Shown here piece by piece: positions 39,022 to 57,300 of a stretch of 64,000 bases of DNA (positions are counted from its first letter, which is position 1; each line of letters opens with the position of its first letter). The DNA is from Micavibrio sp. (GTDB lineage Bacteria > Pseudomonadota > Alphaproteobacteria > Micavibrionales > UBA9664), in assembly GCA_002699085.1 (NCBI GenBank), contig PAAR01000004.1, forward strand, positions 14,839 to 78,838, given 5' to 3'. The notes under the pieces were generated by a model that saw only the letters and a program-made list of their open reading frames with translations, was not told where the DNA came from and searched no databases. A program made the translations under genes and the position numbers.

Positions 39022-39582
39022 ATGGCTAAAAAAGTAAAAAAAGTAGCTGTTCCAAAGGCGGGGCGTAAAAAGAAAAAGTCAAAATTGGCTCTACAGTTCA
39101 TTTTTATTATCATTGTTTTTATTATTATGAGCTTATTGTTCTTGCCTACGACTTTTGTGGTGTTTTTTGGAATGATGCCAACATGGGCATTGTTTTCAAT
39201 GGATGGCTCCAAGAATAAGCTCAAAACAGTTGCTGTGGGAGCAATGAATTTAGCGGGTTGTACTTACGTGCTAACAGATTTGTGGGTAACGAGTCATACA
39301 TTGCCCTATGCGATTAGTTTGCTTTTAAAGCCGTCTAGTATGATTGCTATCTATTTGATGGCGATGGCTGGTTTCGTTCTGCAACGTGTTATTTTGGGTA
39401 TCGTTTCTTCAATGATGCTGCAGCAAGCACGGGCTAAAATAAAAATTATTTTGCGTCGTCAGGATGAGTTAAAAGCGAAATGGGGGCCAGAAGTGACAGG
39501 TACTATTCCGCTTGATATGGACGGTTTTCCCTTAAAGGATGTGCCCGATCAACCAGCGGTTGCATCAACACCAGCCGCTTAA
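39022..39582 (+). CDS. small polytopic membrane protein with a Lys-rich N-terminus (186 aa)
   Basis: MAKKVKKVAVPKAGRKKKKSK followed by about four hydrophobic helices. Starts 7 nt after the pseudokinase stop. Confidence 0.5.
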   Translation: MAKKVKKVAVPKAGRKKKKSKLALQFIFIIIVFIIMSLLFLPTTFVVFFGMMPTWALFSMDGSKNKLKTVAVGAMNLAGCTYVLTDLWVTSHTLPYAISLLLKPSSMIAIYLMAMAGFVLQRVILGIVSSMMLQQARAKIKIILRRQDELKAKWGPEVTGTIPLDMDGFPLKDVPDQPAVASTPAA

Positions 39583-40502
39583 AACTGAATGTCGAAATAA
39601 TAACGATAATTTGGATTTGTTGCAGAAGGCGGTATGAATTTAAACGGGATTAAGGCCCGACCTTGTTTCTTTAATTGGATAGCGATGATATTTTTTCCGT
39701 CTTGCGCAGTTACAGAAGCGTCACTTACAGCACTGCTTTTCTTGATTTGCTGCAACATGCTAGGTGAAACGGGTGCACCATTTGTTTCAATCGTTACAAG
39801 GTTCTCTTGGCTATCAAAAAGAGCTGTATTTTGCAATTTTTCTGAAGCATCAAAAACGACCCGCATAGAACTGTTAGAGACTGAGAGACGGATATCTTTT
39901 AGTGAACCAGATTTCGCAGGGGCAATCGTTTGAGGCTTGATATCAAGTGGTTTATTTTGTGCGGTATTCTCGACAGGTGTCTGCTCGGCATTTTGTTGAA
40001 CTGTCTGTGTTGATGCTGGGGCTTCTGTAAGAGTTTTTAATTGCGTGACAAGCTCGCCAATGTCTTTTTCAATATTGATGAGGCGGTTAAGAGAAGGACG
40101 CATTTCATCAAATTCATTACGGAAGTTTTGGACGGCATTTTCAAGTCGTGTAAAGCGCTCATTGTTATTGCTAATATCTTCAATGAATAGTGTTTTATTA
40201 TTGTCGCTACCTATTGCGCTAGCACTGTTATAATTGGCAGTTGCTTGTGGTTTTGGGAAGTCAGTTGAGGGTGTTGCAAGATCTTTTATATCATAGTCAG
40301 TTTCATTGCCAATAGTCGTTAATGTGCCACTGCGTGCTTGAGGACTCGTCTGTTTTACTTGTTTATTTTTACTAAACATAGTGGGCATAGAAAGCCCGCA
40401 GCCTGATAGCAGCATGCTATAGCTTAATAGTGCTCCTATAAAAGCAAGGCGGAGCCGCTTGGAAAGCAGCTTTTTGCTAGGCTTTTTGTCTGTTAAAACC
40501 AT
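39579..40502 (-). CDS. lipoprotein with a coiled-coil segment and a C-terminal AMIN-like domain (307 aa)
   Basis: Lipobox MLLSGC. FTRLENAVQNFRNEFDEMRPSLNRLINIEKDIGELVTQLKTL looks coiled-coil. SLKDIRLSVSNSSMRVVFDASEKLQNTALFDSQENLVTIE resembles AMIN. Confidence 0.45.
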   Translation of the reverse strand: MVLTDKKPSKKLLSKRLRLAFIGALLSYSMLLSGCGLSMPTMFSKNKQVKQTSPQARSGTLTTIGNETDYDIKDLATPSTDFPKPQATANYNSASAIGSDNNKTLFIEDISNNNERFTRLENAVQNFRNEFDEMRPSLNRLINIEKDIGELVTQLKTLTEAPASTQTVQQNAEQTPVENTAQNKPLDIKPQTIAPAKSGSLKDIRLSVSNSSMRVVFDASEKLQNTALFDSQENLVTIETNGAPVSPSMLQQIKKSSAVSDASVTAQDGKNIIAIQLKKQGRALIPFKFIPPSATNPNYRYYFDIQF

Positions 40503-40604
40503 GTATGTTTACGCTCTCAGAACCAAGATATAGATTAATCCTATATTATGGTAGTTGACCCGCCGACTCAGGTCAACAAAGCATGTGTTGTCTTATAACA
40601 AGAA

Positions 40605-41090
40605 TTAAAAATTAATAATAAGGTCGTAATCTGTGTCGTAATGGCCATTATTGTATATAGCACCTCCACTTAGTGAAGTTAGGCGGGCCATAACATTAAA
40701 GGTATCTGTTCCTGCGGCATTTGTTTGCAATGTATTAGGTCGTATGCGGATATTATCAATCGTAAAATCTGCGCCAGGTCCTGTAAGGACTGTGCTTGGT
40801 GCAAATGTGATTGTGTATGGTGAGTTTGCAGGTCCGCCAGTCAATGTAAACTCGCCTCTTGTGGGTGCGATGTAAATAATGGTGTTGGGGTTAGCTGTGT
40901 ATCCACCATTATTTTGGATATTAATACGGAGTGTCGTATTGAAGCTTTTAAAACCAAAAGTACCAAAACTGAGGTCTTGGGTCTGTGTAATGATGACCTG
41001 TGCTTGTGCGGATAAAGAAATTGTTATCGCAATAAAAATGCTTACAAAGACAAGAGCGATATTATTCTTTTTGCAGAACAATTTCATCAT
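40605..41090 (-). CDS. DUF4402-like fimbrial subunit (minor or second subunit)
   Basis: Start trimmed to MMKLFCKKNNIALVFVSIFIAITISLSAQA (signal peptide). LSFGTFGF motif just after the cleavage site and a C-terminal aromatic (…DLIINF). Overlaps the chaperone stop. Confidence 0.55.
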   Translation of the reverse strand: MMKLFCKKNNIALVFVSIFIAITISLSAQAQVIITQTQDLSFGTFGFKSFNTTLRINIQNNGGYTANPNTIIYIAPTRGEFTLTGGPANSPYTITFAPSTVLTGPGADFTIDNIRIRPNTLQTNAAGTDTFNVMARLTSLSGGAIYNNGHYDTDYDLIINF

Positions 41091-41871
41091 ACAAAGTTCC
41101 ATTATCTGTGTCTGTATAGCTAAGACGTAATTCACCTTTGCCTACAGGCATTTCATCTAGTGTAATAGTCCCTGTGCGCTCATTAATTTCATCAAATAAA
41201 TTGAAATTTGTCACAAAACCAATGTTTTTCCAGTCACCGCCTTGAGGGCGCCATGCTACGTCGATACGCCCCAATGTGCTGGCGCTACCAGATCTTACAG
41301 CTTTAAACGTAACTTCTGGCTTTTTACTCTTTGTTTCACTTGGCGTTTTGAGCAGAATGTCTTCAAGCTTACCTGAGGCAGATAACTCACCTTGCCTAAC
41401 GATAACGGGGATTGATATGCCTAGATTAATACCAAGTCCAACTGATACTTTACCGCTCTCAGTATCTGCTTTTTGAGGTTGTTTTTCTGCAATAGCTAAA
41501 AGGTGGAAGCGATATTCACCATCTGGCAAATCAGCGGGACGTCTCAAAGAAAGGCGAACCTTTTGCTTACCCATAGGCGGAAGAGTAAATGTTTTCGGTG
41601 ACATTCTGAGGACCTCAATCGGGTTAAATAACGGCGAGAGAGGCTCTTCTAAGGTAGTATAGGCGCCGACTGTATCTTGTTTGTAATTGATTGTTTTGAG
41701 TGTGTAGGTTTCTTCTTTGTCTGAAAGATTTAATACGGTTATTTCACCAGATCTCTCACGGTTTTCTATAACGACCATGCGCGGAATAATATCAACGCGT
41801 GCAAAGGCGGTGCTTGTTACAAAAAACGTTAACAATAAAATAAAAAAAGCTATTACATTCGAGCGCATCAT
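41062..41871 (-). CDS. periplasmic fimbrial chaperone (PapD-like Ig fold)
   Basis: Signal peptide MMRSNVIAFFILLLTFFVTSTAFA, then IIPRMVVIENRERSGEITVLNLSDKEETYTL and RMSPKTFTLPPMGKQKVRLSLRRPADLPDGEYRFHL, typical of chaperone strands. Start is ambiguous (GTG 41895, ATG 41880/41871/41868). Confidence 0.6.
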   Translation of the reverse strand: MMRSNVIAFFILLLTFFVTSTAFARVDIIPRMVVIENRERSGEITVLNLSDKEETYTLKTINYKQDTVGAYTTLEEPLSPLFNPIEVLRMSPKTFTLPPMGKQKVRLSLRRPADLPDGEYRFHLLAIAEKQPQKADTESGKVSVGLGINLGISIPVIVRQGELSASGKLEDILLKTPSETKSKKPEVTFKAVRSGSASTLGRIDVAWRPQGGDWKNIGFVTNFNLFDEINERTGTITLDEMPVGKGELRLSYTDTDNGTLYDEIVLQKE

Positions 41872-41901
41872 ATCCTCCATAGATCGTACACTCACTATAA
41901 C

Positions 41902-41933
41902 CGAAAAAAGCCCCGCTGCAAGAGCGGGGCTTT
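41902..41933 (-). terminator. intrinsic terminator between the major-subunit gene and the chaperone gene
   Basis: Minus strand reads AAAGCCCCGCT-cttgc-AGCGGGGCTTT followed by TTTTTCGG. Confidence 0.6.
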
Positions 41934-41964
41934 AACAATATATTTAAGAAAATGAAATTAATAA

Positions 41965-42531
41965 TTAGTAAGAAACAACTACGTCAACTGTACCAGCGAA
42001 CGTACCATCTGTTAGCTGTGTTGCTTGAACTGGTGTTGTTAGTGTCGCACCAATTTCATATGTATCTAAAGCTGTTGCTGTGTATGGGATCGGTGTACCA
42101 AGCGTTACTGCCGCACTACCTGCACCATTAATATCAACAGTAAACGCACTCATTGCCAACGTATCTGTACCATCTGTTGGGTTGATAAGGTTGTTCATTG
42201 TAAAGTTGATTGTTGCGCCTGTAACACCAGCAGCAGATACTTCAGCAGCTGTTGGTGAGCCAGAAGCTTGCGCTACTAGGGCAGGTGCACCACCTGTCGC
42301 AAATGAAATAGAGTCATCTGTTGCAATTGTTGCAGATGCAGAGTTTGCGTTGTCTGTTATGGCAATTAATGTACCAAAATCAAGTGGTGTCACTTGTGTT
42401 AACGTGATCGAGTTAGCAACATCAGCTGTAATGTTAACAGTTAATGTATCTGCTGCATCTGATGTCGTTGCAAACAAGGCAACCGTGGCTGCCGTTAATG
42501 TTAGGTATTTTAGTGTTTTTGTAAGTTTCAT
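41965..42531 (-). CDS. DUF4402-like major fimbrial subunit (188 aa)
   Basis: Signal peptide …ALFATTSDA. Ala/Thr/Gly-rich mature protein with LDFGTLIAI near the N-terminus and a …VDVVVSY C-terminus. Strong SD GAAGGAG 7 nt before the ATG. Followed by a terminator hairpin. Confidence 0.6.
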   Translation of the reverse strand: MKLTKTLKYLTLTAATVALFATTSDAADTLTVNITADVANSITLTQVTPLDFGTLIAITDNANSASATIATDDSISFATGGAPALVAQASGSPTAAEVSAAGVTGATINFTMNNLINPTDGTDTLAMSAFTVDINGAGSAAVTLGTPIPYTATALDTYEIGATLTTPVQATQLTDGTFAGTVDVVVSY

Positions 42532-42687
42532 TTTTTGGCTCCTTCAAAAAAGTCAGTTAGTGTGTTAAAAATTAATGTATAGTATCATAATTAAGAATAT
42601 CGCCAAATAGTTAATTGAATCTTAAAAAACATAATTTAAATAAAATTTTATTTAAACTTTTACAGAGGGATAGACATCGTAAAGCAG

Positions 42688-45600
42688 ATGAGGTTTTTCA
42701 AGAGAAATACATGCTTTCTAGTGTTGCTTTGTTTGAGTTTACAGGCTTGTCCAAACACTGCTTGGGCACAAGAAATAGCAGATTTAAGGTCTCTAGCTAG
42801 TAGTTTTGTGCAAAAACTATCACCTCAATATAAGGATCTTCAGGCACAAAAAGATGCTTTGGATCAAATTCCTGAGGGTTCGTCACTGCTATTGCGCCCT
42901 AGATCGGAAAAAGTCGTATTTGATGGTGAAATATATTCTTTCAAGCGTAATAACGCTATATATATGGCGTTAGAAGATTTTATTGAATTATTAGAGTTCA
43001 ATGTAGGTTTTGATAATAGTACATTAAAAGGGAGTGGCTGGTTTTTGCGCGAAGACTGGCATATTGATATTGATATTCCCCATAAAAAAGTTGTATCTCG
43101 TGGCGTTACTTACAATATTGATTCGGCGAATATTTTTGAAGAAGATGGTATTGTTTTTGTTAAAGACACAACGCTAGCCAAGTGGTTTGGGTTAAGCTTT
43201 GACTACGATATAGAGCAGCAGTTCATTGATATTGAGAGCGCATATCCGCTGCCGTCGGTTGCGCGTAATTTACGACAAACAAAAGGACCTGGCAGCATAT
43301 CAACGCTTAATGAGCCTGTTTTGCCTAGATTGGAACAGGAAAAGCAGCTGTTTGATTTAAATGTTGCTGATGTAAGTTTGGGTACATCAATGACGAAACA
43401 GTCATCAGGTGATGCACTTAACCGCCAATACGGAAATGTGACTGTAGAAGGTGAGCTCTTAAAACATAATGCCTATGTTTTTTCAGCGGCAGATAGCGAT
43501 AATAATTTATCCTCTGTTGTCGCTCGATTATCTAAAAGATCAGAAGATCCAGATTTATTGGGGCCTTTAAATGCTCGTTCATATGCTATTGGAGATATTG
43601 AACAAACTGATATGCCCTTAACAGGTAACACATCACAAGATTTAGGATTTCGGTTTGATAACAATCCGCTGGAGAACACTGATTTTGCTACGACAAATAT
43701 TGTCGGTGATGGCTTACCTGGTTGGGATGTCGAGCTTTACCGAGAAGGCATATTATTAGATACGCTGACGATAGATAATGATGGCCGTTATGAATTTAAT
43801 AATGTGCAATTATTCCTTGATGACAACACTTTTGAACTATTCTTTTATGGTCCTCAAGGTGAGATACGTAGTGAAGAGATTCAGGTGCCTGTAACAGCCG
43901 ATTTATTAAGAACACAGGATAAAACCTATGAGTTTTCTGTTTCTTTTGAGGATACTCAAACATTTGAAAACACGCTTACGCCAGATCAGGATCAAGGAGC
44001 TATGCATGTTGCAGGACGCTATAATAAACTTCTCGGTGATGAAACCTTAGGTTATGTCGGGTTTCGGTCACGTCAGGTAGGTGGCGAACGTAAAGATTTT
44101 TTAAGCTCAGGTATTTCGACAATTGTTGGGCAAACTATTCTGGATACCAACTTTGCTGTTGATGAAGATGCCAGTATTGCTGGAGAAGCTTTGCTGCGAC
44201 AAAATATTGATGACTGGAACTTATCTTTGCGTGCCAAAGCAAATTCAGATGGATTTGCACCTGATGACATCACTGACCCTCTTATCAGAGAATTTAACTT
44301 CAGTGCGTCAAAGCCTTTGGGTAAAGATGGGAATGGTATAAAAGGTAATGTATTGTTGAATGCATTACATCAAGAAACAGTAGCAGGTAGTATGCTTGAT
44401 TCCGTTGACGCTGGGTTCAGTCAGCAGTTTAACCGTACTAATCTGTCTCATCGACTTACCTATGAGAATAGCGATATTGTCGGCGGTGTTGATAATGAAG
44501 ATGTCGATTATACACTGTCTGCACGGCGTATTATAGGGCCAATGTTTACGAGATTTGGGGCAACATATAATATTACGCCAGATTCAGAATTAGAGAGCTT
44601 ATTTGGCCAAGTTAATTATCGTTACAATAGTAAATTTTCAACGGATGTTTCTTTGCAGCATCAATTAGATAATGAATTAACAACAGGGCGTTTAAACTTA
44701 AATTATATTGGTGATAAGATAAGAACATCCCCCTTTGTTGAGATGAATTCAGATGACCGTATATATGCAGGTGTAAACCTTAATTTCTCGTTGATTGATC
44801 CTGCATACGAAGATACACCCATTGTAACCAGTCGTAGACAAATTGGTCGAGGGTTGGTGTCAGCACATGTGTTCTTGGATAAGAATGGCAATCTTATTTT
44901 TGATGAAGGAGATGAACCTATTAAAAATGCAACCGTTGAAAGTGTTAATACACGCCGAAGTGACATTACAAATGCGCAGGGTTATACAACGTTAAAAGAG
45001 CTGACCACCACTCGTCCAACTGATATTCGTCTTGTTGCAGACACATTACCTGATCCGTTTATGATACCAGCCTTTGAGGGTCGCTCAATTTTTCCAGAAG
45101 CGGGTAGCATGATTAAGATGGAGTTCCCTGTTCATATGTCAGGAGAGCTTGATGGTGCAGTATATTATTTATCGGAGACAGGTAGTAAACAAACATCAAG
45201 CTATCATGGTATTACGCTAACTTCGCTAGATCATCCTGACCGTAAGGTGTTTGAAGCAAGATCAGAAACAGATGGATATTACTTGATGTATTTATTGCCT
45301 CCTGGTCGGTATCTTTTAAATACCGAACCTAAAAGCAGAGCGGGTAAATCATTAGGCAACACCACGCCTCAGATCGTTACGATTGGCTATGAAGGCACAA
45401 TCTTAAGTAATCAGGATATCCAAGTTACTGTAGGGCAGCCTTATATTCCTTATGAAATTCATTTTGCTGAAGGTGCAGCAAAATATGCCGATGCGCAGCA
45501 ATATACATTAAAAGTGAAGCGAAAAGGGGCGTCTAAATTATCTGAACTTATTAGTGGTCTGTTGAGTAAAAGGCTTAATAAATCAATGATTAAGGATTTA

Positions 45601-45765
45601 ACACGCATTGCTGATAAAAAGACAGAAGACGGTGTATATGAGCAATACACAGATAGTGATCTTCAAAAATTACATCATGCATGCGTAGAAATAAAACAGA
45701 CAGGCATTACGTGTGCTATTGAAGTTTTTGTACCTGCAGCAAATCAAGAAGTTGCGTTACGTTAA
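42688..45765 (+). CDS. fimbrial outer-membrane usher-like protein with extra C-terminal Ig/CarboxypepD_reg-like domains (1,025 aa)
   Basis: Signal peptide. GWDVELYREGILLDTLTIDNDGRYEFNNVQLFLDDNTFELFFYGPQGEIRSEE resembles the usher plug/middle-domain pattern. Long beta-rich middle part. VFLDKNGNLIFDEGDEPIKNATVES resembles a CarboxypepD_reg-like unit. Divergent from the subunit-chaperone operon. Confidence 0.5.
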   Translation: MRFFKRNTCFLVLLCLSLQACPNTAWAQEIADLRSLASSFVQKLSPQYKDLQAQKDALDQIPEGSSLLLRPRSEKVVFDGEIYSFKRNNAIYMALEDFIELLEFNVGFDNSTLKGSGWFLREDWHIDIDIPHKKVVSRGVTYNIDSANIFEEDGIVFVKDTTLAKWFGLSFDYDIEQQFIDIESAYPLPSVARNLRQTKGPGSISTLNEPVLPRLEQEKQLFDLNVADVSLGTSMTKQSSGDALNRQYGNVTVEGELLKHNAYVFSAADSDNNLSSVVARLSKRSEDPDLLGPLNARSYAIGDIEQTDMPLTGNTSQDLGFRFDNNPLENTDFATTNIVGDGLPGWDVELYREGILLDTLTIDNDGRYEFNNVQLFLDDNTFELFFYGPQGEIRSEEIQVPVTADLLRTQDKTYEFSVSFEDTQTFENTLTPDQDQGAMHVAGRYNKLLGDETLGYVGFRSRQVGGERKDFLSSGISTIVGQTILDTNFAVDEDASIAGEALLRQNIDDWNLSLRAKANSDGFAPDDITDPLIREFNFSASKPLGKDGNGIKGNVLLNALHQETVAGSMLDSVDAGFSQQFNRTNLSHRLTYENSDIVGGVDNEDVDYTLSARRIIGPMFTRFGATYNITPDSELESLFGQVNYRYNSKFSTDVSLQHQLDNELTTGRLNLNYIGDKIRTSPFVEMNSDDRIYAGVNLNFSLIDPAYEDTPIVTSRRQIGRGLVSAHVFLDKNGNLIFDEGDEPIKNATVESVNTRRSDITNAQGYTTLKELTTTRPTDIRLVADTLPDPFMIPAFEGRSIFPEAGSMIKMEFPVHMSGELDGAVYYLSETGSKQTSSYHGITLTSLDHPDRKVFEARSETDGYYLMYLLPPGRYLLNTEPKSRAGKSLGNTTPQIVTIGYEGTILSNQDIQVTVGQPYIPYEIHFAEGAAKYADAQQYTLKVKRKGASKLSELISGLLSKRLNKSMIKDLTRIADKKTEDGVYEQYTDSDLQKLHHACVEIKQTGITCAIEVFVPAANQEVALR

Positions 45766-48700
45766 GCGGGTTCAGGTGTTTTTTCGTGGACTGGATTATA
45801 TTTGCGCTGAGGGTGCGCAACATTTCTCATGTTGTCGTCAATCTCACCCAGGTGTTTATTGCTTTTCATCCATCTTTTTATTTCATTAAATAAAGCTTTT
45901 TTCTTTGTGCTGCGGCCAATAAAATGTGCATATCTTTCTGGTTCGGATTCAATAGCGTCTATTTCACGCATTGCCTGATGGTATTGGTAAAAGGAGATGT
46001 AACGACGCATTTGCAAAATTTCATTTTGATCGTCTGTTGTTAGGTCTTTTTTACAGATATCGTAATGCACATTATTAATAGTGATGGCTGCAGTCTCTAA
46101 TAAAGGTCTATATTTCATTATCTCTTTATAAAGAGTAGATGCTTCTTTCTTATTATCGTCCGTAATCGCACTAACATATTGACTTAAAAGTTTTGTGATT
46201 CTTTTATAACCAGTATTGGTGTTGCCAGCGCGGATCTGTCCAAGTTTAGCTATGCCTTGTTCTGCGCGCGGTCCTTTTTTCTTGATTGGCCATAAAGGCT
46301 TATCAAGTATAGGAAATTCAGGTTGTTCAAGACTTCGGAAAAATTGATCTTTGTTGCCCTCATTTGTTTCCGATATTTTATTAGATAAGGTTTTCCAATT
46401 GTCATCGGGGTCAATAAAATTACGATATTGTTTAACGATACCTGCTCGGTAATCTAACGTTTCTCTTGATAGTCCTGCATTGGCATTGACGACAAAGCCA
46501 AATTTCGCAGGCATAACAATAGGATTTTTCTTCATATCAATGATTTCAAAAACATCATCTTTACGGTCATCAGCCATGGCAAGAATTTTTTCAGCAGGCA
46601 AGCTCATATATTTATAAGGATCATATTTCAGATTAAAGACAACGGCATATTGGTCATCTTTCATTGTTGCAACCAAACAACCCATTTTCGGTATGGGCTG
46701 CAAGGCAGAAGGGCTGACATAAGAAAAGACAGGATGCGGGCCATTAAAACCTGTGGCCATACCCATCATATCGTTTAGTAAATGATAATTACTACTATCG
46801 GCATTAATCACCATCTGCCCAACAATTTCTGGTGAGATATCATATTGCTTCCAAAATAGTTTTAAGCAGAGCTGAGTATCAGCCAATGCACCATGCAAAT
46901 TACGGCTGTTATATTTGATGTTCATTGCATCGCAAAGGGCACTTAAACGGTGATCGTCAAGCCCTGAGGGTGATTTGTGTGGTTTGTATTTTTGCGGTGC
47001 GAAAGCAGCCAATGCACGTGATATATTACGAGTGTCTATGCCAATAATGCCATAAGTCTCAAACGGTTTTAAACGAGCGTGTAAATTGCGACCTAGTTCT
47101 TTTTCAATCATACGTTGATCGAAGGGTTTGTTATGTGCGGCAACAATAACTTTCATTCTGTTTTTTGCTGTAACAAGCTCTGGTTCTTTGGTGGATTTTT
47201 TTAACGCCAATTGTTGTGAATTTATACGCAAATCATCAACAGCATCGTTAAATGCTTGGGTAAAGCTTGCAGGCGTCAAACCTTGTGAGAAATCTTTGTA
47301 TGTCAGTCCTGTTATAAGCATCGCCTCAGGTGACGGCACAATATAATCAGGTATTTGCTGTTTAACAATTTTTGTATCAATTGTTTTGCGGGTTTCGCTG
47401 TTTTGTAGAATAAGCCCTAATTCATAGATCCGATGTTCAGGCGCTTCTTTGCCTGTGGTTTCTGTGTCTAGCCCAGTAACTATATGAATTTCTTTATCTT
47501 CAAAAACAGTTGATTTCTTGTAACGCTCGATACCAAAAGGAAAATCTTGTGTGAGATAGCCATTACCAGAAAGAACATTGAAACGTGGTGATAGAAAGAA
47601 AGGGAGACTACTTGCTAATGCATTTTCAGAGGTAAATCCTGCATCTCTTAAAACAGCATTCTCAAACCGTTCTATAAGTTTTCCAGCTACGGTAAAAGGA
47701 TCTGGCTTCACGCCAATAACGATTGTTGAGAAACGACCTTTTAACCAAAATTTATTAGCGGGGGCGTGTGATTTTATACCGATAAAGCTAGAGGGTTCAG
47801 TTCCAGTTACTTCAGCATTTTTACCTTTCTTAATACGAATGCGTGCATTATGTACAGCACGCATAGTCTGTGCACCGACCTTTTCAGCTAAGAGCATATG
47901 TGCGTTGATTTGTGCTGGAGAACCATGTGCAGGAATTGTAAAAGGCTTTCCAGATTCAATAATGGTTTCCATACAACCGTCTTCGGAAGAGTGACCAGAG
48001 CCGTGTCGAATAGTAAGCTCACCTGCTTTTGCGATGGCTTCTGGCATATAAACTTTGGCACCATGGAATATTTCTATATCAATCTTAGAATCTGCTCTTT
48101 GCCATTTGTTGTTACCAACGGGGATTACACCTTGTAAGTAACAAACAACATCTAAATCATTGAGGCGAAACTTATCATTCACATCACGGACCAGCTTATT
48201 CATAGCTGATTGTGGTTCATCTTGTGTACCTGTTGCGAGGATGGCATAACGCTCGGCGCCTTCACCTTTAAGGAGCTTTTTCGCTTTTTTCTGGCTGTCC
48301 ATCAGGATTGTCACGCCCATTCGTTTTGCCCATTCTTTTAACGCATGGGCCTTATCGGCATCACGGACCAGATCTTGTACGGCCTTGCCGCTGATGATTA
48401 ATGTGTTGCAATCTGTTTGCGCAAGAGCGTGTATTGTGGTGGCAAGGCGTGTAATGTTTGACCCTAGCATAGGGAAAATCATTCTTTGTCCCGCATGAGC
48501 TTCTACTATGTTGATGATATCTTCTTCGACTTCTAATTCTGTAGGATTGCGTTCTGTCCTATTAGCGCCTGTAGAATCTGCCGTCATGACATCTGGTTCA
48601 AAGCCACGCAACCATGTGTTTAGATCGGGAAGTCCCAGACGATTAGCAGGATCACGACTGTAATCCCCTGTATGCCTTAATGAACCAGCAGGTGTTATGA

Positions 48701-50402
48701 GATCATACATTTGCCCTGGGTCAGAGTGAGGCATAGGACCAACACGGATTTTAAATGAGCCGATTTGTAAGACTGGATAATGTTCACTTTTACCGAGCTC
48801 TTTGCTGGGTAAAGTTTCTGTCCATTGCTCTATGGTAACATCATCAATAACAGTTTTTTTGCGCTTTTCTGGATCAGAAGGATTTACATCCTTGAGCATA
48901 TTAATTGTATAGCATTTTTCTAATATCTCTTCTTGAATAGACTTCTCTATTTTTAGTTCACGCATTTTGCGCTTGAGGCTAAGAAAGGTCATTTCATTCA
49001 TAATGAGCGGTGGTAATTTGTAACCCGCCTTAATCAGATAAGGGAGTTGTCCTAAATGGTCTTCATGTTTATGGGTAATAAGAATGAAATCTACGGGTGT
49101 TTCGGGTATGTGATTTTTATCAAACTTATGATGTAAAAATCTGCTCGCATTATAAAATGCAATGTCAAAAACATCATGGAACAGGACACCAGCATCAATC
49201 ATGGCGGCTTCAACTTTAATAGAGCCATCTGCTTGTACTGAACGATATGTGATGCCGTATTGATTGCCCCCAATGTTCAGGTCGTGGTCAGAGGTCAATC
49301 GACGGGAAGGATTTCCGCCAATGATTACCAAATCCATTATGCCTTGTTTTGGAATTTTCATGGGTTGGTTTAGATATTGATGTGCCTGCGTGTGAAGCAT
49401 TAACTCCGATGGCAATGCATATTTACGATTGTAAGATTTGGCCGCCAAATCTTCGATAAGTGCTTTATCGCCAGCCCGAACGGTACGATTTATATTCCTT
49501 ATAACTTTTAGGATGGTAGAAACAGCATGAGAATCTTTTAAGTCAATTTTTCGTCCTTCATATATGAGAGAGCTTATTTTGACTTGCTTGGGTTTACCTT
49601 TAACGGGTGTTGTTTTTATTTCGTATAATGTTTCTGTTTTTTCTTCATGCGTCTCTTCATTTAGAACGGATATTAATCCAGTAATATGAAGATGTGCAGG
49701 TGTTTTGCCTTGCGTATATGTGTATTCAAGGGTTGAGAAACTGTCATTGCCTTCTTTTCCATGGTGGCTAAGGACGTTATGAATTGGTTTGCCGACATAG
49801 TTATAATGCTCTGGCGCAACACCTAAAAGAGCAGGCATAAAAAAAGCCGAAAAAATGGGGTTTTCAGCTGATCTATTAAAGTTTTTTAGCGCATTAAGGT
49901 TTCGTTTTATATCGCCATTTGCATAAAGTGCTGGCCATGCTTTGCGGCCAATATTCTGTTTTATAAGATTGTGCTCTTGAAGCAATTCAATAGGGTTAAC
50001 CCATTCATTATGGCGCCCTACTTTGTCAAAAAAGTCTTTGCAGAGTCTTTCAAGTTTTTTTGTGTGCTCAGGGAGCGTAATGTCTAATGCTTCTAGTATG
50101 TCACCGGCCCGTATTTTCGCTTCGGTAATTTTTATGCGCCCATCTTCATTTTCTGCGCACTCCATGTCGAAGAAATGGATATGTTGATTGTCTGCATTGT
50201 TTTCATGCACATCATAACTACAGCGGAGGCGATAGCCTGCCTCAGTACGGGTAATTTCAAAAACAAGCGCACGGATCGTGCCGGTCTCAGAATCGGTGAG
50301 GATTGTGAAATGGCGAGACTCGCCTGTCTTCTCTAAGTTTGATAGCGTTTCTTCTATACCAAACCTAGAAAAGAAGTGCTCTTTTCTATAGCTTATGCTC
50401 AT
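45762..50402 (-). CDS. 1,546-aa fusion protein: unassigned N-terminal ~350 aa, RNase J-like metallo-beta-lactamase/beta-CASP nuclease, Exonuclease I-like DEDDh exonuclease, basic C-terminal tail
   Basis: MBL motif ILITHKHEDHLGQLPYL (49056-49073) preceded by LVIIGGN and IDAGVLFHD. Beta-CASP-like MTADSTGA, HGSGHSSEDG and TIPAHGSP. DEDDh motifs GLDTETTG (47451-47474), AAHNKPFDQRMI and LHGALAD (46878-46898). The downstream region has an ExoI C-domain layout. Confidence 0.7.
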   Translation of the reverse strand: MSISYRKEHFFSRFGIEETLSNLEKTGESRHFTILTDSETGTIRALVFEITRTEAGYRLRCSYDVHENNADNQHIHFFDMECAENEDGRIKITEAKIRAGDILEALDITLPEHTKKLERLCKDFFDKVGRHNEWVNPIELLQEHNLIKQNIGRKAWPALYANGDIKRNLNALKNFNRSAENPIFSAFFMPALLGVAPEHYNYVGKPIHNVLSHHGKEGNDSFSTLEYTYTQGKTPAHLHITGLISVLNEETHEEKTETLYEIKTTPVKGKPKQVKISSLIYEGRKIDLKDSHAVSTILKVIRNINRTVRAGDKALIEDLAAKSYNRKYALPSELMLHTQAHQYLNQPMKIPKQGIMDLVIIGGNPSRRLTSDHDLNIGGNQYGITYRSVQADGSIKVEAAMIDAGVLFHDVFDIAFYNASRFLHHKFDKNHIPETPVDFILITHKHEDHLGQLPYLIKAGYKLPPLIMNEMTFLSLKRKMRELKIEKSIQEEILEKCYTINMLKDVNPSDPEKRKKTVIDDVTIEQWTETLPSKELGKSEHYPVLQIGSFKIRVGPMPHSDPGQMYDLITPAGSLRHTGDYSRDPANRLGLPDLNTWLRGFEPDVMTADSTGANRTERNPTELEVEEDIINIVEAHAGQRMIFPMLGSNITRLATTIHALAQTDCNTLIISGKAVQDLVRDADKAHALKEWAKRMGVTILMDSQKKAKKLLKGEGAERYAILATGTQDEPQSAMNKLVRDVNDKFRLNDLDVVCYLQGVIPVGNNKWQRADSKIDIEIFHGAKVYMPEAIAKAGELTIRHGSGHSSEDGCMETIIESGKPFTIPAHGSPAQINAHMLLAEKVGAQTMRAVHNARIRIKKGKNAEVTGTEPSSFIGIKSHAPANKFWLKGRFSTIVIGVKPDPFTVAGKLIERFENAVLRDAGFTSENALASSLPFFLSPRFNVLSGNGYLTQDFPFGIERYKKSTVFEDKEIHIVTGLDTETTGKEAPEHRIYELGLILQNSETRKTIDTKIVKQQIPDYIVPSPEAMLITGLTYKDFSQGLTPASFTQAFNDAVDDLRINSQQLALKKSTKEPELVTAKNRMKVIVAAHNKPFDQRMIEKELGRNLHARLKPFETYGIIGIDTRNISRALAAFAPQKYKPHKSPSGLDDHRLSALCDAMNIKYNSRNLHGALADTQLCLKLFWKQYDISPEIVGQMVINADSSNYHLLNDMMGMATGFNGPHPVFSYVSPSALQPIPKMGCLVATMKDDQYAVVFNLKYDPYKYMSLPAEKILAMADDRKDDVFEIIDMKKNPIVMPAKFGFVVNANAGLSRETLDYRAGIVKQYRNFIDPDDNWKTLSNKISETNEGNKDQFFRSLEQPEFPILDKPLWPIKKKGPRAEQGIAKLGQIRAGNTNTGYKRITKLLSQYVSAITDDNKKEASTLYKEIMKYRPLLETAAITINNVHYDICKKDLTTDDQNEILQMRRYISFYQYHQAMREIDAIESEPERYAHFIGRSTKKKALFNEIKRWMKSNKHLGEIDDNMRNVAHPQRKYNPVHEKTPEPA

Positions 50403-50542
50403 TTATGTCTATCCCTGTTCAGAGGATGTTTTTTTGTTTTTATTGTCTTTAGTAATAAACAAAAAAGACTCTATTGCAATGCAAAAAATAATTTATTTTT
50501 TCTGTTATTGCCAAAGATAAGAGTCGGTTATATTGAATAAGT

Positions 50543-51445
50543 ATGAAGCAAAAATCGCAATCAACAAACCACATAGGTCTCATAAAACCTCAGGTTTTTT
50601 ACTCTAACCCGCAGACTTTAAATACGAATCCTTATCAGGATAAGGAGCTGCACCATGCTGATTCTGTCGTACTTTCTAAGGCATTAGAAGAGTTTAAAGG
50701 TTTCCATGAAATGCTTGTGGATAAAGGTGTTGCTGTGACAATGTTGTTAGGACATCCAGAATGTCCAGACCACGTTTTTCCGAACTTCTTTAGTACGCAT
50801 GATAATGGGCAAGCAATTCTTTTTCCAATGATGGCAGAGAATCGTTCGAAAGAACGGACACCAGAGATTTTAGATTTTATTAAACGACATTATACGATTG
50901 CCCATGATCTCACGCATTTTGAAGCTGAGGGTAAAGCTTGTGAGGCAAATGCCAGTGTTTGTCTTGATCGTGTGAACGGCATGGCTTTTGCTGTGCTATC
51001 AAAACGGACGGATGAGGGTTTAGCGAGGCACTTAGCTGACATAATGGGTTACGATATTGTCATCGGCGAGACGGCATTAGATAATGGACTGCCTGTATAT
51101 CATACTGATCTTATGATGTTTGTTGGCGAGGGATATGCGGCTGTTTGCTTTGAGATAATGACAAAAGGGGCGGAAGAATTTAGAGACGCACTGACTAAAT
51201 TAGGTCATGAAATTGTTGAGATTAGTAAAGAGCAGCTCAATGAAATGTGTGGTAATGCGTTGCAAGTTATTGGGCAAGGCGGCCAGAAATATCTTGTAAT
51301 GTCTTCACGCGCTTTTAATGCTTTTAGAGACGATCAAAAAATGATCTTTAAAAAATATGTTGCGGATATCCTACATGCGCCAATTCCAACGATCGAGAAA
51401 TATGGCGGGGGTTCAGCACGTTGCTTGATGCAGGAGCTGTTTTAA
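50543..51445 (+). CDS. guanidino-group-modifying-enzyme fold protein (arginine-deiminase-related; CtlX-like citrulline utilisation hydrolase candidate)
   Basis: 300 aa. The C-terminal catalytic-Cys context GGGSARCLMQELF and the HTDLMM motif are typical of the amidinotransferase/ADI superfamily. Translationally coupled to ornithine cyclodeaminase. Confidence 0.6.
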   Translation: MKQKSQSTNHIGLIKPQVFYSNPQTLNTNPYQDKELHHADSVVLSKALEEFKGFHEMLVDKGVAVTMLLGHPECPDHVFPNFFSTHDNGQAILFPMMAENRSKERTPEILDFIKRHYTIAHDLTHFEAEGKACEANASVCLDRVNGMAFAVLSKRTDEGLARHLADIMGYDIVIGETALDNGLPVYHTDLMMFVGEGYAAVCFEIMTKGAEEFRDALTKLGHEIVEISKEQLNEMCGNALQVIGQGGQKYLVMSSRAFNAFRDDQKMIFKKYVADILHAPIPTIEKYGGGSARCLMQELF

Positions 51446-52449
51446 TGCTCTATGTTGATGTCGCACAAATGGTTAAATTGATCGGTAAGATTGGTGTTGA
51501 AACGGCCATTGTTGAATTAGCAGAGTATATAGAACAAGATTTTAAGCGCTGGGGCGAATTCCAAAAACAACCTCGTTATGCAGCCCACCACCCTAAAGGT
51601 GTTGTTGAATTAATGCCGATCGCTGACGACCAGCAATTTGGTTTTAAATATGTGAACGGCCATCCAGCTAATACCAAGAAAGGATTACAAACAGTCATCG
51701 CTTTTGGTGTTCTATCAGATATGGAGACAGGTTATCCATTACTATTATCAGAAATGACTTTTGGGACAGCGCTTAGAACCGCCGCCACATCAAGCTTGGC
51801 AGCAAGATACTTGGCCAGACAAGAGGCTCAAACCATGGCAATTATTGGTAATGGCAGCCAGTCAGAGTTTCAAGCTTTGGGCTTTAAAGCCATGTTAGGA
51901 ATCAAGACAATAAGGGTTTACGATATTGATCCTGATGCCTCACAAAAATTAGCGCAAAACCTTATAAATAAAGGCTTAGAAATTATCATTTGCAAAACAG
52001 CGGATGAAGCCATTTTGGGAGCTGATATTATCACGACTGTAACAGCAGATAAAAAGGCTGCCACGATTTTGTCTGATAATATGGTAGGGGCTGGCGTGCA
52101 TATAAATGCCATTGGTGGAGATTGCCCAGGCAAGACTGAGCTTCACGCAGATGTCCTAAAACGAGGGTCTGTTTTTGTTGAATATGAACCACAAACACGG
52201 ATTGAAGGGGACATCCAACAAATGTCTGAAGATTTTGCTGTAACAGAGTTGTGGCAGGTTTTTGCAAGCTTGCAAAAAGGCCGTGTTAACAACGAACAAA
52301 TCACAATTTTTGATTCTGTTGGCTTTGCGCTCGAAGACTTCTCATTCTTACGGTATATCTACGATAAAATTTGTGACTCTGGCTATGATGTGTCGCTGGA
52401 TCTATTTGCGGAACCAGATAATCCACGAGATTTATTCGGTTTGTTGTAG
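51445..52449 (+). CDS. ornithine cyclodeaminase / mu-crystallin family protein
   Basis: Rossmann segment MAIIGNGSQSEFQALGF, with TVTADKKAATIL and HINAIGGDCPGKTEL. ATG at 51445 overlaps the upstream stop (TAATG). The track start at 51421 is a TTG. Confidence 0.8.
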   Translation: MLYVDVAQMVKLIGKIGVETAIVELAEYIEQDFKRWGEFQKQPRYAAHHPKGVVELMPIADDQQFGFKYVNGHPANTKKGLQTVIAFGVLSDMETGYPLLLSEMTFGTALRTAATSSLAARYLARQEAQTMAIIGNGSQSEFQALGFKAMLGIKTIRVYDIDPDASQKLAQNLINKGLEIIICKTADEAILGADIITTVTADKKAATILSDNMVGAGVHINAIGGDCPGKTELHADVLKRGSVFVEYEPQTRIEGDIQQMSEDFAVTELWQVFASLQKGRVNNEQITIFDSVGFALEDFSFLRYIYDKICDSGYDVSLDLFAEPDNPRDLFGLL

Positions 52450-54370: not shown

Positions 54371-57300
54371 TCAAGTTTCGGTTTGTAGAGCTTCTCTTAA
54401 CTCGGTCTGACGACGTTGTTGATATGTTAATGTATCTTCAAATTCATCGTATAAATCTCGATAAGCAGCCGTTTCAGTATCGTTTTGAGCGTTTGATTCG
54501 TTGTTATTAGCAGTCTTTTGATCGTTCTCTGCACTCATTTCTTTAAGAGCACTTAGGATATCACGGACAGTTTTGCCTTGTGGCAGTGTATGAACCTCAG
54601 TGCTTTCATTATTCGGTGTATTGTTTTCCGTCGTTTCATCTGATTGTGTCGTCAAATTTGAGTTAAAGACAACAAAATTAGAACGGTTATCTAGCATGTT
54701 TTGCATCTCAAATGTCGTATTGGCACGGATAATTTGTCCAATTCCATCTGAGCCGTAGAATGCATTTATTTGATCTGAAGCGTTACCCGTAATAAAGCTT
54801 TGAATAAGACCGTTTGAGCTGTAGTCACGATCTTCTTCTATTTTATGACCTAAATAGCCGTCTCTTGAACTATTCGGTCTATCTTGGGGAATTGTGTTTA
54901 GTGTTAGCTCGCTTGCATCTTCGATATCAATAACAAAAACCTTGTCAAAAGTACCGCCATTACCGTCATCAGTGCGGATTGTTACGCTGTGCTGCGTGGC
55001 AGTTTCGTAGTCAGCCTCTGCATTAAGCAATAATTTATTACCACTGATGAGGAACATATTATCTGGGTCAGATATGATGGTGTAAGTGAAGCTATCACTT
55101 GGTACATCAACATCATTCGTGCCTAATGTGGCAATAACATCACCAATTTCGCCCAGTTCTGAAATGCTTGTGGCGTCTGCGGTAATATCTGTTGGTGCAT
55201 CGTTTACATTAATACGAGATAGAGCAAAACTCGCAGTAGCTGCGACAGCGCCATTTTCGCCGCCATCAGCAAGTGATATATCAAAGCTACCGTCCATTTC
55301 AGAACCATCATGGATGAAATCTACACGGTTATTGTTAATGTCGTCTTGCGTGAAGGTGTTTTGTGCGACACCGCTTACTTCTATTGTGCCGTGGCTCAAA
55401 TTAGAGGCCGTGTAAGTGACATCTGTGGCTATGTCATCGCTATCGGCCATATTAAGCATGGTTGATGTAATCGTTTTTGTTCCGCCTTCAAGCACTGTTG
55501 TTCCAGTGTTTACTGTAATAGTAGGGGCATCATTGATGGGGTCTACAACCATATCAAAACGCCCTGTGCTTGCCACGACACTGTCTTCGCCGCCATCTAT
55601 GACGGATATATCAAAGCCTGCAGAAGATGTTTCTGAGCCATCATGTAAGAAGCTTACCAAGCCTGCATTAAGATCTGTTTGTGTGAAAGTGTTTTGCGTG
55701 ACGCCATTTACTTGAAGTACGCCATTTGAAAGGTTACTTGCTGTGAATGTAAGACCTGCATCAGAATCGTCATCATCCGATACATTGAGTTTTGCAGGAT
55801 CAATAACGACAGATTGCCCTTCATTAACTCTTAATTCGGCATTATTTTCAAATAAAACAAGATTTCTAAAGGAGGCGTCATTGGCGGCACTCGCATCATC
55901 ATCCGCAAAGAATGTCATATAGTTGAAATTGCCAGTAAAGAATGTACCGACTGCAATATCGTAGTGCACCCAGCCATCGCCAACATTATAGGTGTTAAAT
56001 GTTTTATTGGTCGGGGCGTAGCTTAGTTGGTCGCCCAAGAACTGGAAGGCAGATTGAATAGTACCGTCATTATCAACGTCAAAACCAAGACCTTGTACTT
56101 CACCTTCATCCGTTGCCAAGAAATCAAAGCTAAGGATTGTATCTGCTGTTATTGTGTAAGGTAGGTTAATCTTTTTCCAAGGATTACCGTTTAGTGTAAG
56201 TGTGTAGCCGTCTGGACTAATAGTCGCTGTACCAGAATCCTGACCACCCCAATAACCACTGACTGTGTAATCATTAAAGTTTACGCCGACTGTATTACCA
56301 TTTGAAATAATAAGATTTGGTGCGTCATTCACAGGCGTTACTGTAATAGCGAAAGAGTCTGTATCAGCAGAAACACTATTCTCGCCGCCATCGGCTAATG
56401 AGAGATCAAAGCCTGCCGAGGTTGTTTCAGAACCGTCATGGATGAAGACCACACGGTTATTGTTGATATCATCTTGCGTGAAAGTATTTTGTGCTACGCC
56501 ACTGACTTCGATCACACCGTTTGATAGGTTTGAGGCTGTATACGTGACATCGGTGTCAGCATCATCAACATCAGACATATCGAGCATAGCACTGGTAATT
56601 GTTTGGCTCGCCCCTTCATTTATTGTAACGCCTGTATTCACTGTAATGCTTGGCGCTTCGTTAATTGGTGTGACAGTAATGGCAAAAGAGCCAGTATCAG
56701 CAGCGGCACTATTCTCACCACCATCGGCTAATGAAATATCAAAGCCTGCCGAGGTTGTTTCAGAACCGTCATGGATGAACACCACACGGTTATTGTTGAT
56801 ATCATCTTGCGTGAAGGTGTTCTGCGCTACGCCACTGACTTCGATCACACCGTTTGATAGGTTTGATGCTGTATAAGTGACATCGGTGTCAGCATCATCA
56901 ACATCAGACATATCGAGTATGCTGCTTGTGATTGTAACACTTGCTGCCTCATCAATTGTTACACCTGTATTTGTAATAATAGTCGGTGCTTCATTGACTG
57001 GTGTGACAGTAATGGCGAAAGAGCCTGTGTCCGCCGCTGCGCTATCCTCGCCACCATCGGCTAATGAGAGATCAAAGCCAGCTGAAATGGTTTCACTATC
57101 ATCATGGATAAACACAACACGGTTATTGTTGATATCATCTTGCGTGAAGGTGTTCTGCGCTACGCCACTGACTTCAATTATACCATTAGACAGGTTTGAT
57201 GCTGTGTAGGTGACGTCTGTTGCGGCATCGTCAGCATCTGTGAGATTAAGCATTGCTGATGTTACAGTGAGGCTCGCCCCTTCATTCATCGTAGCGCCTG

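Follow-up and report, generated by a model that had tools for sequence, protein, structure and literature searches.

Structure and integrity of the fusion gene

The 64,000-nucleotide stretch analysed here (the window; contig PAAR01000004.1 of the Micavibrio sp. assembly GCA_002699085.1, positions 14,839 to 78,838) carries on its minus strand a single long open reading frame (ORF), the fusion gene, whose product joins two nuclease modules to an orphan N-terminal region. The modules follow one another in the order N-terminal module, RNase J-type core and Exonuclease I (ExoI)-type module, and their coordinates are collected in Table 1. An earlier reading of the letters alone (the sequence-only reading) had described one uninterrupted ORF of 1,546 codons, and this is what we found; the positions it gave for the motifs HxHxDH, GLDTETTG and LHGALAD were exact by codon arithmetic on the translation. 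Its central claim, a covalent fusion of an RNase J-type core to an ExoI-type module, was upheld by hidden Markov model (HMM) searches, profile matches to PDB sequences, a fold search and residue conservation. Neither a signal peptide nor a membrane segment was found in the fusion protein (19-residue hydropathy peaks at 1.23), and it is predicted to be soluble with no secretion signal.

An identical 1546-aa product with the same flanking genes was recovered on at least eight contigs from several independent assemblies, four of these contigs coming from a Tara Oceans assembly in ENA, from GCA_002358745.1 and from two Logan runs. Full-length orthologues were present in 16 GTDB species genomes, and collinear full-length relatives of 1534-1597 aa were found in other genomes. 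The identical protein in several assemblies and the 16 orthologues effectively exclude a stop codon or frameshift that had been assembled away. We also considered an assembly chimera, or a missed frameshift merging two or three genes. In favour of such an event, one relative (locus L011) is broken into three ORFs; against it stand the repeated recovery of the same ORF, about 29 full-length relatives (1422-1607 aa) that all have the same three-part layout with collinear modules, and a G+C content that is uniform along the gene (0.39-0.41) and the same as in the remainder of the window. This explanation is effectively refuted already. The fusion gene is genuine, conserved and uncharacterised, and is no assembly artefact.

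Table 1. Location of the fusion gene, its modules and motifs, and associated features (window positions unless a locus is named).
Feature	Position	Strand	Description
Nuclease fusion ORF	45762..50402	(-)	1546 aa plus stop, 175 kDa, ATG start, no interruption
N-terminal module	49347..50402	(-)	Residues 1-352; AlphaFold2 model, predicted local distance difference test (pLDDT) 81.6, predicted template modelling score (pTM) 0.71
RNase J-type metallo-beta-lactamase/beta-CASP core	47568..49346	(-)	Residues ~353-945; Pfam, TIGR00649, PDB RNase J matches
HxHxDH metal-binding motif	49056..49073	(-)	H444, H446, D448, H449; invariant in alignment A1
H-G-S-G-H	47991..48005	(-)	Residues 800-804; aligned with 'HTSGH' of RNase J1 (3zq4)
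Exonuclease I-type module	45813..47567	(-)	Residues ~946-1530; AlphaFold2 plus Foldseek, profile against PDB
DEDDh motif I, GLDTETTG	47451..47474	(-)	Residues 977-984; D979, E981
DEDDh motif III, LHGALAD	46878..46898	(-)	Residues 1169-1175; H1170, D1175
Disordered extreme C-terminus	45765..45797	(-)	Last ~11 residues; pLDDT <50 for model residues 592-602; variable in family
Shine-Dalgarno-like AGGGA	50412..50416	(-)	9 nt before ATG; read from sequence
Promoter-like TTGGCA-18-TATTTT	50485..50514	(-)	Consensus match only, within the 140-nt divergent intergenic region
PF06189 5'-nucleotidase of a relative (example)	L004:14746-15891	(+)	PF06189 match

The RNase J-type core

The RNase J motif series listed by the sequence-only reading was confirmed by HMM searches as a metallo-beta-lactamase (MBL)/beta-CASP core, though one that scores under the curated full-length cutoffs. 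Pfam RNase_J_b_CASP (PF22505) matched residues 639-765 above its gathering score (E 1.2e-8, 35.2 bits vs. 27), Lactamase_B matched residues 430-484 slightly below threshold, and the NCBIfam RNase J family model TIGR00649 matched the core at E 3e-26. When the family profile was run against PDB sequences, RNase J structures were matched at E 1e-19 to 1e-8, and beta-CASP proteins of the CPSF, Integrator and TTHA0252 types scored far below them. MBL motifs 1-4 are all present (D403, H444/H446/D448/H449, H559 and D580) and align to RNase J1, and so are beta-CASP motifs A, B and C (D609 in ADSTGA, H804 in HGSGH, H826 in PAHGS). Of the 29 full-length members, 28 keep HxHxDH, the exception (P0034) having Glu for the first His; S802 and H804 are kept in all 29 and G803 in 28. 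The HTSGH of RNase J1 we take to be beta-CASP motif B together with the 5'-monophosphate pocket.

The bacterial RNase J enzymes of known structure (B. subtilis RNase J1, 3zq4; T. thermophilus, 3bk1) share the MBL/beta-CASP signature and all metal-binding motifs with the core, and RNase J1 aligns with it motif by motif (HSxP, HTGDx, DST, SN..RL, TG(S/T)Q.EP, H.SGH, P.HG). The core differs in carrying, relative to the N-terminal motif of RNase J, extra sequence between the GG and IG.NQ segments at its start, and in being flanked by the orphan module (352 aa) on one side and by an ExoI of 600 aa on the other. Its scores were 91.8 bits against a cutoff of 400 for TIGR00649 and 90.6 bits against 820 for the full-length model NF047419, and its identity to annotated RNase J genes was ~26% over residues 377-845. 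At this identity, and with 92 of 400 bits, the core is far more divergent than an RNase J orthologue. The matches to RNase J sequences in PDB end near chain residue 440 of 555, and the C-terminal (dimerisation) domain of RNase J was undetected by sequence in the core; the ~80 residues from 865 to 945 are possibly a linker, or a remnant of that domain.

Lineage-specific appendages of RNase J have precedents. The H. pylori enzyme (PDB 8cgl, chain of 705 aa) has an N-terminal extension, and plant chloroplast RNase J carries a C-terminal GT-1 domain. These appendages are short or DNA-binding and not a second complete nuclease, in contrast to the fusion protein, and they are unrelated to its N-terminal module.

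The Exonuclease I-type module

Pfam RNase_T (PF00929) matched residues 978-1183 (E 1.7e-9, 38.8 bits vs. a gathering score of 24), which confirmed the DEDDh exonuclease domain. Residues 945-1546 (602 aa) were modelled with AlphaFold2 (pLDDT 82.6, pTM 0.82), and the model was compared with PDB structures by Foldseek. The top 18 matches were ExoI chains (E 1e-16 to 1e-13), with template modelling (TM) scores of 0.62-0.75 normalised to the ~460-residue target and 555-591 aligned columns; the ExoI structures 4rg8, 4js4, 3hl8 and 1fxx were matched at E 1e-16 to 1e-14 with TM 0.70-0.75. RNase T came next at 1e-6, restricted to the exonuclease domain. Searches of PDB sequences with the module profile gave the same order, Exonuclease I first (E 1.7e-5) and then RNase T. 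The module is thus laid out as a DEDDh exonuclease domain (~970-1190), an SH3-like domain (~1225-1300) and an expanded helical C-domain (~1300-1530). Since the match covers most of the ExoI chain, the earlier suggestion that SH3-like and helical domains follow the exonuclease domain was correct. The five DEDDh residues, D979 and E981 of motif I, D1095 of motif II (within AAHNKPFD), and H1170 and D1175 of motif III, are invariant in 29/29 full-length members.

A profile search of 5.8 billion proteins, which returned at least three proteins, bridged the module to the ExoI family by sequence. One of them, the standalone 464-aa protein P0053, matches the module profile at E 3e-24 and clearly belongs to ExoI (E 7e-40 to 4rg8 and 1fxx, domains RNase_T and ExoI_C); it is the standalone ExoI nearest to the module. 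In its region (L026:4008-7395) the P0053 gene adjoins a DUF6119 gene, a ParB_N fragment and an SRA-HNH (ScoMcrA-like) gene. These neighbours suggest a mobile or defence island, which the surroundings of the fusion family do not.

The Pfam models of the ExoI C-domain (Exonuc_X-T_C / ExoI_C), which the sequence-only reading had proposed as a check, gave no match in the window protein; Exonuc_X-T_C matched only one distant member (P0033), below threshold. The NCBIfam ExoI equivalog PRK11779 scored 15.6 bits against a cutoff of 260. Compared with ExoI/SbcB (E. coli 1fxx and 4js4, M. szegediense 4rg8), the module shares the DEDDh motifs, the 'L(I/V)TG' segment after motif I and, in the model, the three-domain layout of exonuclease, SH3-like and helical domains over ~460 residues. 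It is only 14-16% identical to the solved structures, its helical domain is ~100 residues larger, and within the fusion family it never stands alone, unlike ExoI/SbcB. As the fusion protein falls under the curated cutoffs of both nuclease families, it is best filed as RNase J-like plus ExoI-like and as an orthologue of neither.

The last ~100 residues, previously described as basic and unassigned, lie mostly inside the ExoI superposition (up to 591 of 602 columns), and their basic charge is not a family trait: across relatives the final 60 residues have isoelectric points anywhere between 4.4 and 10.8. In many relatives the last ~15 residues (window 45765-45810) are acidic with a hydrophobic end, as in ...DDDAQEFVLDI and ...DDPLDELVPVS. 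Such ends resemble the C-terminal tails of SSB, to which ExoI binds; autoregulation of the fusion protein through an SSB-tail-like C-terminus would be pure speculation.

The orphan N-terminal module

The claim that the first ~350 residues resemble nothing known stood up in every search made. The profile of the N-terminal module had no match among PDB sequences, and Foldseek searches of its model against PDB and viral structures returned nothing at E<=0.001. Pfam, searched at E<=5 over the N-terminal modules of 13 members, gave a sole and insignificant match, KH_TffA (E 0.13). When 1.84 billion representative proteins were searched exhaustively with HMMER, the module was found in only 23 entries; 22 have lengths that fit the fusion architecture or are short, probably truncated pieces, and one is a spurious repeat protein. 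By sequence and predicted fold the module is therefore specific to the fusion family, with no relative detected outside it.

In the model, which is reasonably confident, the module forms two similar alpha/beta units (~1-130 and ~183-310), in each of which a helix of ~20 residues is predicted to come after five or six long antiparallel strands. Its best, non-significant fold matches were di-domain ARO/CYC proteins and the dehydratase and thioesterase domains of polyketide synthases, all tandem beta-sheet-plus-helix arrangements; we take this modelled likeness as a hint only. Profile-profile comparison linked the two units only weakly (hhalign E 2e-4, probability 44%), and an internal duplication was set aside on this weak support.

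Distribution and conservation of the family

All homologues come from uncultured Alphaproteobacteria labelled Micavibrio, Rhodospirillales or Alphaproteobacteria, 16 of the loci having been obtained by scanning 185,579 GTDB species genomes. In the databases, members and fragments are named 'hypothetical protein', 'exonuclease domain-containing protein', 'mRNA degradation ribonuclease J1/J2' or 'COG2925'. Searches of the literature turned up no covalent RNase J-ExoI fusion, in agreement with the sequence-only reading, which knew of none. In this family, known parts are combined in a new way within a narrow uncultured lineage; it is not a new principle. Two loci carry other titles: L007 ('Alcanivorax sp.') has the gene order common to the Micavibrio-like L004, L008 and L013, and L015 ('Cytophagales bacterium') has that of L014 and L016, which suggests that both were mis-binned or mislabelled.

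Within the family the nucleases are always fused. No member lacked a module, except on truncated contigs and in the frameshifted L011, where the fusion gene (L011:9983-14481) and the adjacent nucleotidase gene (L011:14614-15640) of the metagenome-assembled genome (MAG) MFD03250.bin.1.57 are both split into overlapping ORFs; these splits are probably assembly indel errors and not pseudogenes. We checked 18 residues, including the MBL and beta-CASP metal ligands, the S-G-H pocket and the five DEDDh residues, and 17 of them are kept in at least 27 of the 29 full-length members, H800 being the exception. The catalytic residues hold down to 17-23% module identity. Substitution of catalytic residues would have spoken against the fusion as two nucleases, and both predicted active sites are intact; this conservation in 29 members argues that both nucleases are under purifying selection as active enzymes.

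Genomic context

The fusion gene is monocistronic in the window. It is convergent with a 1025-aa gene (42688-45765), the stop regions overlapping by 4 nt. The sequence-only reading was right about the convergence and had called that gene a fimbrial usher, a label for which we found no Pfam usher match and no NCBIfam match; the gene has only sub-threshold Pfam matches to CarboxypepD_reg and SdrD_B. Nor was the idea of an accessory stretch borne out. The window encodes PurA, PGI, a class I tRNA synthetase, an FtsH-type M41/AAA protease, a PP-loop ATPase, signal peptidase II and a phosphoglucomutase-family enzyme, and is core chromosome. In the 140-nt intergenic region upstream of the fusion gene, the number of promoter-like matches did not exceed the expectation from shuffled sequence.

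Relatives have a partner gene. In 15 of 17 loci (L001-L004 and L006-L016) a same-strand gene of ~340-380 aa lies directly 3' of the fusion gene, with a gap of -49 to +33 nt in 14 loci and of 133 nt in the frameshifted L011; in some of those loci the fusion-gene stop overlaps the downstream start. The product is a cytosolic-type (cN-IA-like) 5'-nucleotidase of family PF06189 (E 4e-37 to 4e-51), apparently co-transcribed with the fusion gene. The earlier statement that the gene has no operon partner thus holds in the window and fails in those 15 loci.

Three loci of a divergent clade (L014-L016) have further genes upstream. Divergent from the fusion gene (in L016 at L016:5108-9523, minus strand, and likewise in L014 and L015) lie a 727-aa RNase R/II-family (RNB) gene, below the RNase R cutoff, and a gene for a 739-aa protein with a C-terminal LOG/TIGR00730 (PpnN-like, SLOG cluster 4) domain. 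A conserved 96-aa ORF with no family match stands just before the fusion gene.

Among the more distant members, L020 has ribonucleotide reductase directly downstream and HIT and PRK-family (uridine-kinase-type) genes within ~5 kb, and two of the three distant members have PrmA, FYDLN and thiolase genes nearby; all three lie among housekeeping genes. A pooled Pfam scan of 129 neighbouring ORFs returned metabolic and housekeeping families, and no defence or mobile-element family was among the families listed.

With 5'-nucleotidase, RNase R-like, LOG-like and ribonucleotide reductase genes as neighbours, the physiological setting is likely to be turnover of nucleic acids and nucleotides. Of the roles that the sequence-only reading had put forward, this context favours turnover over defence; it demonstrates none of them.

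Proposed function and alternatives

We tentatively propose, with somewhat less than even confidence, that the fusion protein degrades RNA or single-stranded DNA (ssDNA) from two ends to mononucleotides in the cytoplasm, for nucleotide turnover. RNase J cuts internally and also acts as a 5'-monophosphate-dependent 5'-3' exonuclease, and ExoI is a processive 3'-5' ssDNA exonuclease; from these activities the fusion should degrade single strands from both ends to 5'-mononucleotides. The RNase J core would cut internally and then run 5' to 3' from 5'-monophosphorylated ends, the tethered ExoI clamp would run 3' to 5', and fragments would be wholly converted to 5'-mononucleotides, no intermediates being set free. 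The apparently co-transcribed cytosolic-type 5'-nucleotidase would take over these products in most members; one clade has genes for a LOG/PpnN-like nucleotide hydrolase and an RNase R-like enzyme alongside. Such a system would recycle nucleotides and turn over RNA or ssDNA in bulk in cells that have small genomes and are presumably predatory or epibiotic, and the N-terminal module may regulate, oligomerise or recruit substrate.

Several points weigh against this proposal. A tblastn search found no 5'-nucleotidase in the window or in its closest relative, L005, and none stands at the locus in the three distant members; the coupling is therefore not obligatory. Cytoplasmic dephosphorylation of nucleoside monophosphates is not obviously useful for salvage, and cultured M. 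aeruginosavorus makes nucleotides de novo (PMC3189940). No homologue attributed to M. aeruginosavorus was returned by either homologue search, and the predatory lifestyle of the host MAGs is assumed from their names only. The 5'-nucleotidase matches the PADLOC single-gene defence candidate PDC-S08 (E 1.8e-49).

The match to PDC-S08 is the only positive hint at an anti-phage or anti-plasmid defence nuclease, with the adjacent 5'-nucleotidase depleting nucleotides, and it leaves that explanation some residual weight. DEDDh and SbcB-like models of CRISPR- and DRT-associated proteins also match the ExoI module, and large multi-nuclease proteins are common in defence. The matches in PADLOC-DB 2.0 were to generic domains only, with no system-level model, and the protein has no obvious sensor or NTPase module. 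Housekeeping neighbours prevail over at least 20 loci, with no restriction, integrase or transposase gene among the families listed, and the recurrence of PrmA, FYDLN and thiolase near two distant members argues in the same direction. Fusion homologues were absent from IMG/VR viral contigs and from PLSDB plasmids, which carry canonical RNase J only. We regard a defence role as improbable. A mobile or viral origin of the family was rejected on the same absence of IMG/VR and PLSDB copies.

Coupling of RNase J to a 3'-5' exonuclease has parallels in archaea, where a preprint reportedly describes an aRNase J-ASH-Ski2-exosome network that joins RNase J to 3'-5' exonuclease machinery. The closest precedent in concept is that of Haloferax volcanii, in which RNase J and a 3'-5' exonuclease form a non-covalent RecJ3/4-aRNase J complex (PMC10470531). 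Both assemblies resemble the fusion protein in that an RNase J-type enzyme is physically linked to a 3'-5' exonuclease; the archaeal assemblies act on RNA and ssDNA. They are non-covalent and multi-subunit, whereas the fusion is a single bacterial polypeptide, and their 3'-5' partner is a DHH/RecJ-family protein or the exosome where the fusion has a DEDDh ExoI.

This archaeal pairing also lends support to a different hypothesis, namely that the protein is a housekeeping enzyme of RNA decay and maturation, a one-polypeptide 'degradosome' composed of an RNase J orthologue, a 3'-5' exonuclease and an N-terminal scaffold. It would replace canonical RNase J and serve mRNA decay and rRNA and tRNA processing instead of bulk catabolism. 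The core-chromosome settings with PrmA, FYDLN and thiolase near two distant members, the strong conservation of the catalytic residues of both nucleases, and the RNase R-like gene adjoining in L014-L016 are in line with it. The divergence of the core (92 bits vs. the 400-bit cutoff, ~26% identity) is too great for an orthologue, however, and ExoI is known as a DNA-specific enzyme. A family found in only 16 of 185,579 GTDB species genomes, with no match attributed to cultured M. aeruginosavorus, also sits badly with a housekeeping role, and the recurrent partner is a nucleotidase and not an RNA helicase or PNPase. We consider this hypothesis somewhat unlikely.

If DNA is the substrate, the protein might instead process ends in DNA repair or recombination, with a beta-CASP 5'-3' DNA exonuclease, as in SNM1/Artemis, joined to ExoI and the two resecting or trimming ssDNA of either polarity, as a substitute for RecJ and ExoI together. 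ExoI acts on DNA, its complete ssDNA-clamp architecture appears to be retained in the model, and some archaeal RNase J enzymes also degrade ssDNA. The archaeal RecJ3/4-aRNase J acts on ssDNA and functions in DNA-damage survival (PMC10470531). The core, however, is specifically RNase J-like (E 3e-26), its matches to SNM1 and CPSF types reaching E 2.5e-4 at best; repair genes do not recur in the neighbourhood, and the recurrent partners are nucleotide and RNA catabolic enzymes. End processing is decidedly improbable on this evidence.

A secreted or injected effector that attacks the nucleic acids of prey, with the N-terminal module as its delivery domain, is suggested by a host lineage named after epibiotic predators, by giant cadherin-like and RTX surface proteins encoded nearby, and by the secreted nucleases of Bdellovibrio. 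Such an effector is hard to reconcile with a protein that has no signal peptide or membrane segment, with the cytosolic type of the partner 5'-nucleotidase, and with loci at which no secretion-system or immunity gene recurs beside the fusion gene. The three modules moreover co-vary as one conserved unit, unlike a polymorphic toxin, and we hold this explanation to be highly improbable.

A bolder form of the turnover proposal, which we consider unlikely, is that the fusion is a hitherto unrecognised, self-contained nucleic-acid 'shredder' peculiar to predatory or epibiotic Micavibrio-like bacteria or, alternatively, a nuclease-plus-nucleotidase immunity module. In a shredder, the tandem domain at the N-terminus would represent a new fold that recruits substrate or regulates, and would gate both exonucleases, a captured strand would be eaten from both ends at once, and together with the 5'-nucleotidase it would form a dedicated pathway from prey-derived or self nucleic acid to nucleosides.

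RNase J and ExoI are textbook enzymes of opposite polarity that have so far been studied as separate proteins. Their conserved fusion raises the question of how a pair of processive exonucleases can work together on a single substrate, and whether DNA is a target of the RNase J core or RNA a target of ExoI. It also marks a pair of domains, 350 residues in all, that has no detectable relatives, and its recurrent linkage to a 5'-nucleotidase gene, joined in one clade by RNase R-like and LOG-like genes, hints at an undescribed route of nucleic-acid catabolism in a little-known group of Alphaproteobacteria with small genomes and a presumably predatory life. It is a tractable target, with one gene to express and assay.

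Other genes of the window

Divergently from the fusion gene, overlapping genes at 50543-52449 (plus strand) encode a eukaryote-type dimethylarginine dimethylaminohydrolase (DDAH; E 5e-68) and an ornithine cyclodeaminase (E 7e-119). On the other side, the small genes beside the 1025-aa gene (window 39579-45765) include those for a DUF4402 protein and a weakly Fn3-like protein, and this region may be an unrecognised pilus or surface-fibre cluster. A 2589-aa protein encoded at 54371-62140 (minus strand) contains 12 Cadherin_3 domains together with Cadherin, Cadherin_4, Big_9 and C-type lectin domains, and is probably a giant surface adhesin. Among housekeeping genes at 1068-2348 (minus strand) we found a gene for a 426-aa pentapeptide-repeat protein (Pentapeptide, E 1e-57).

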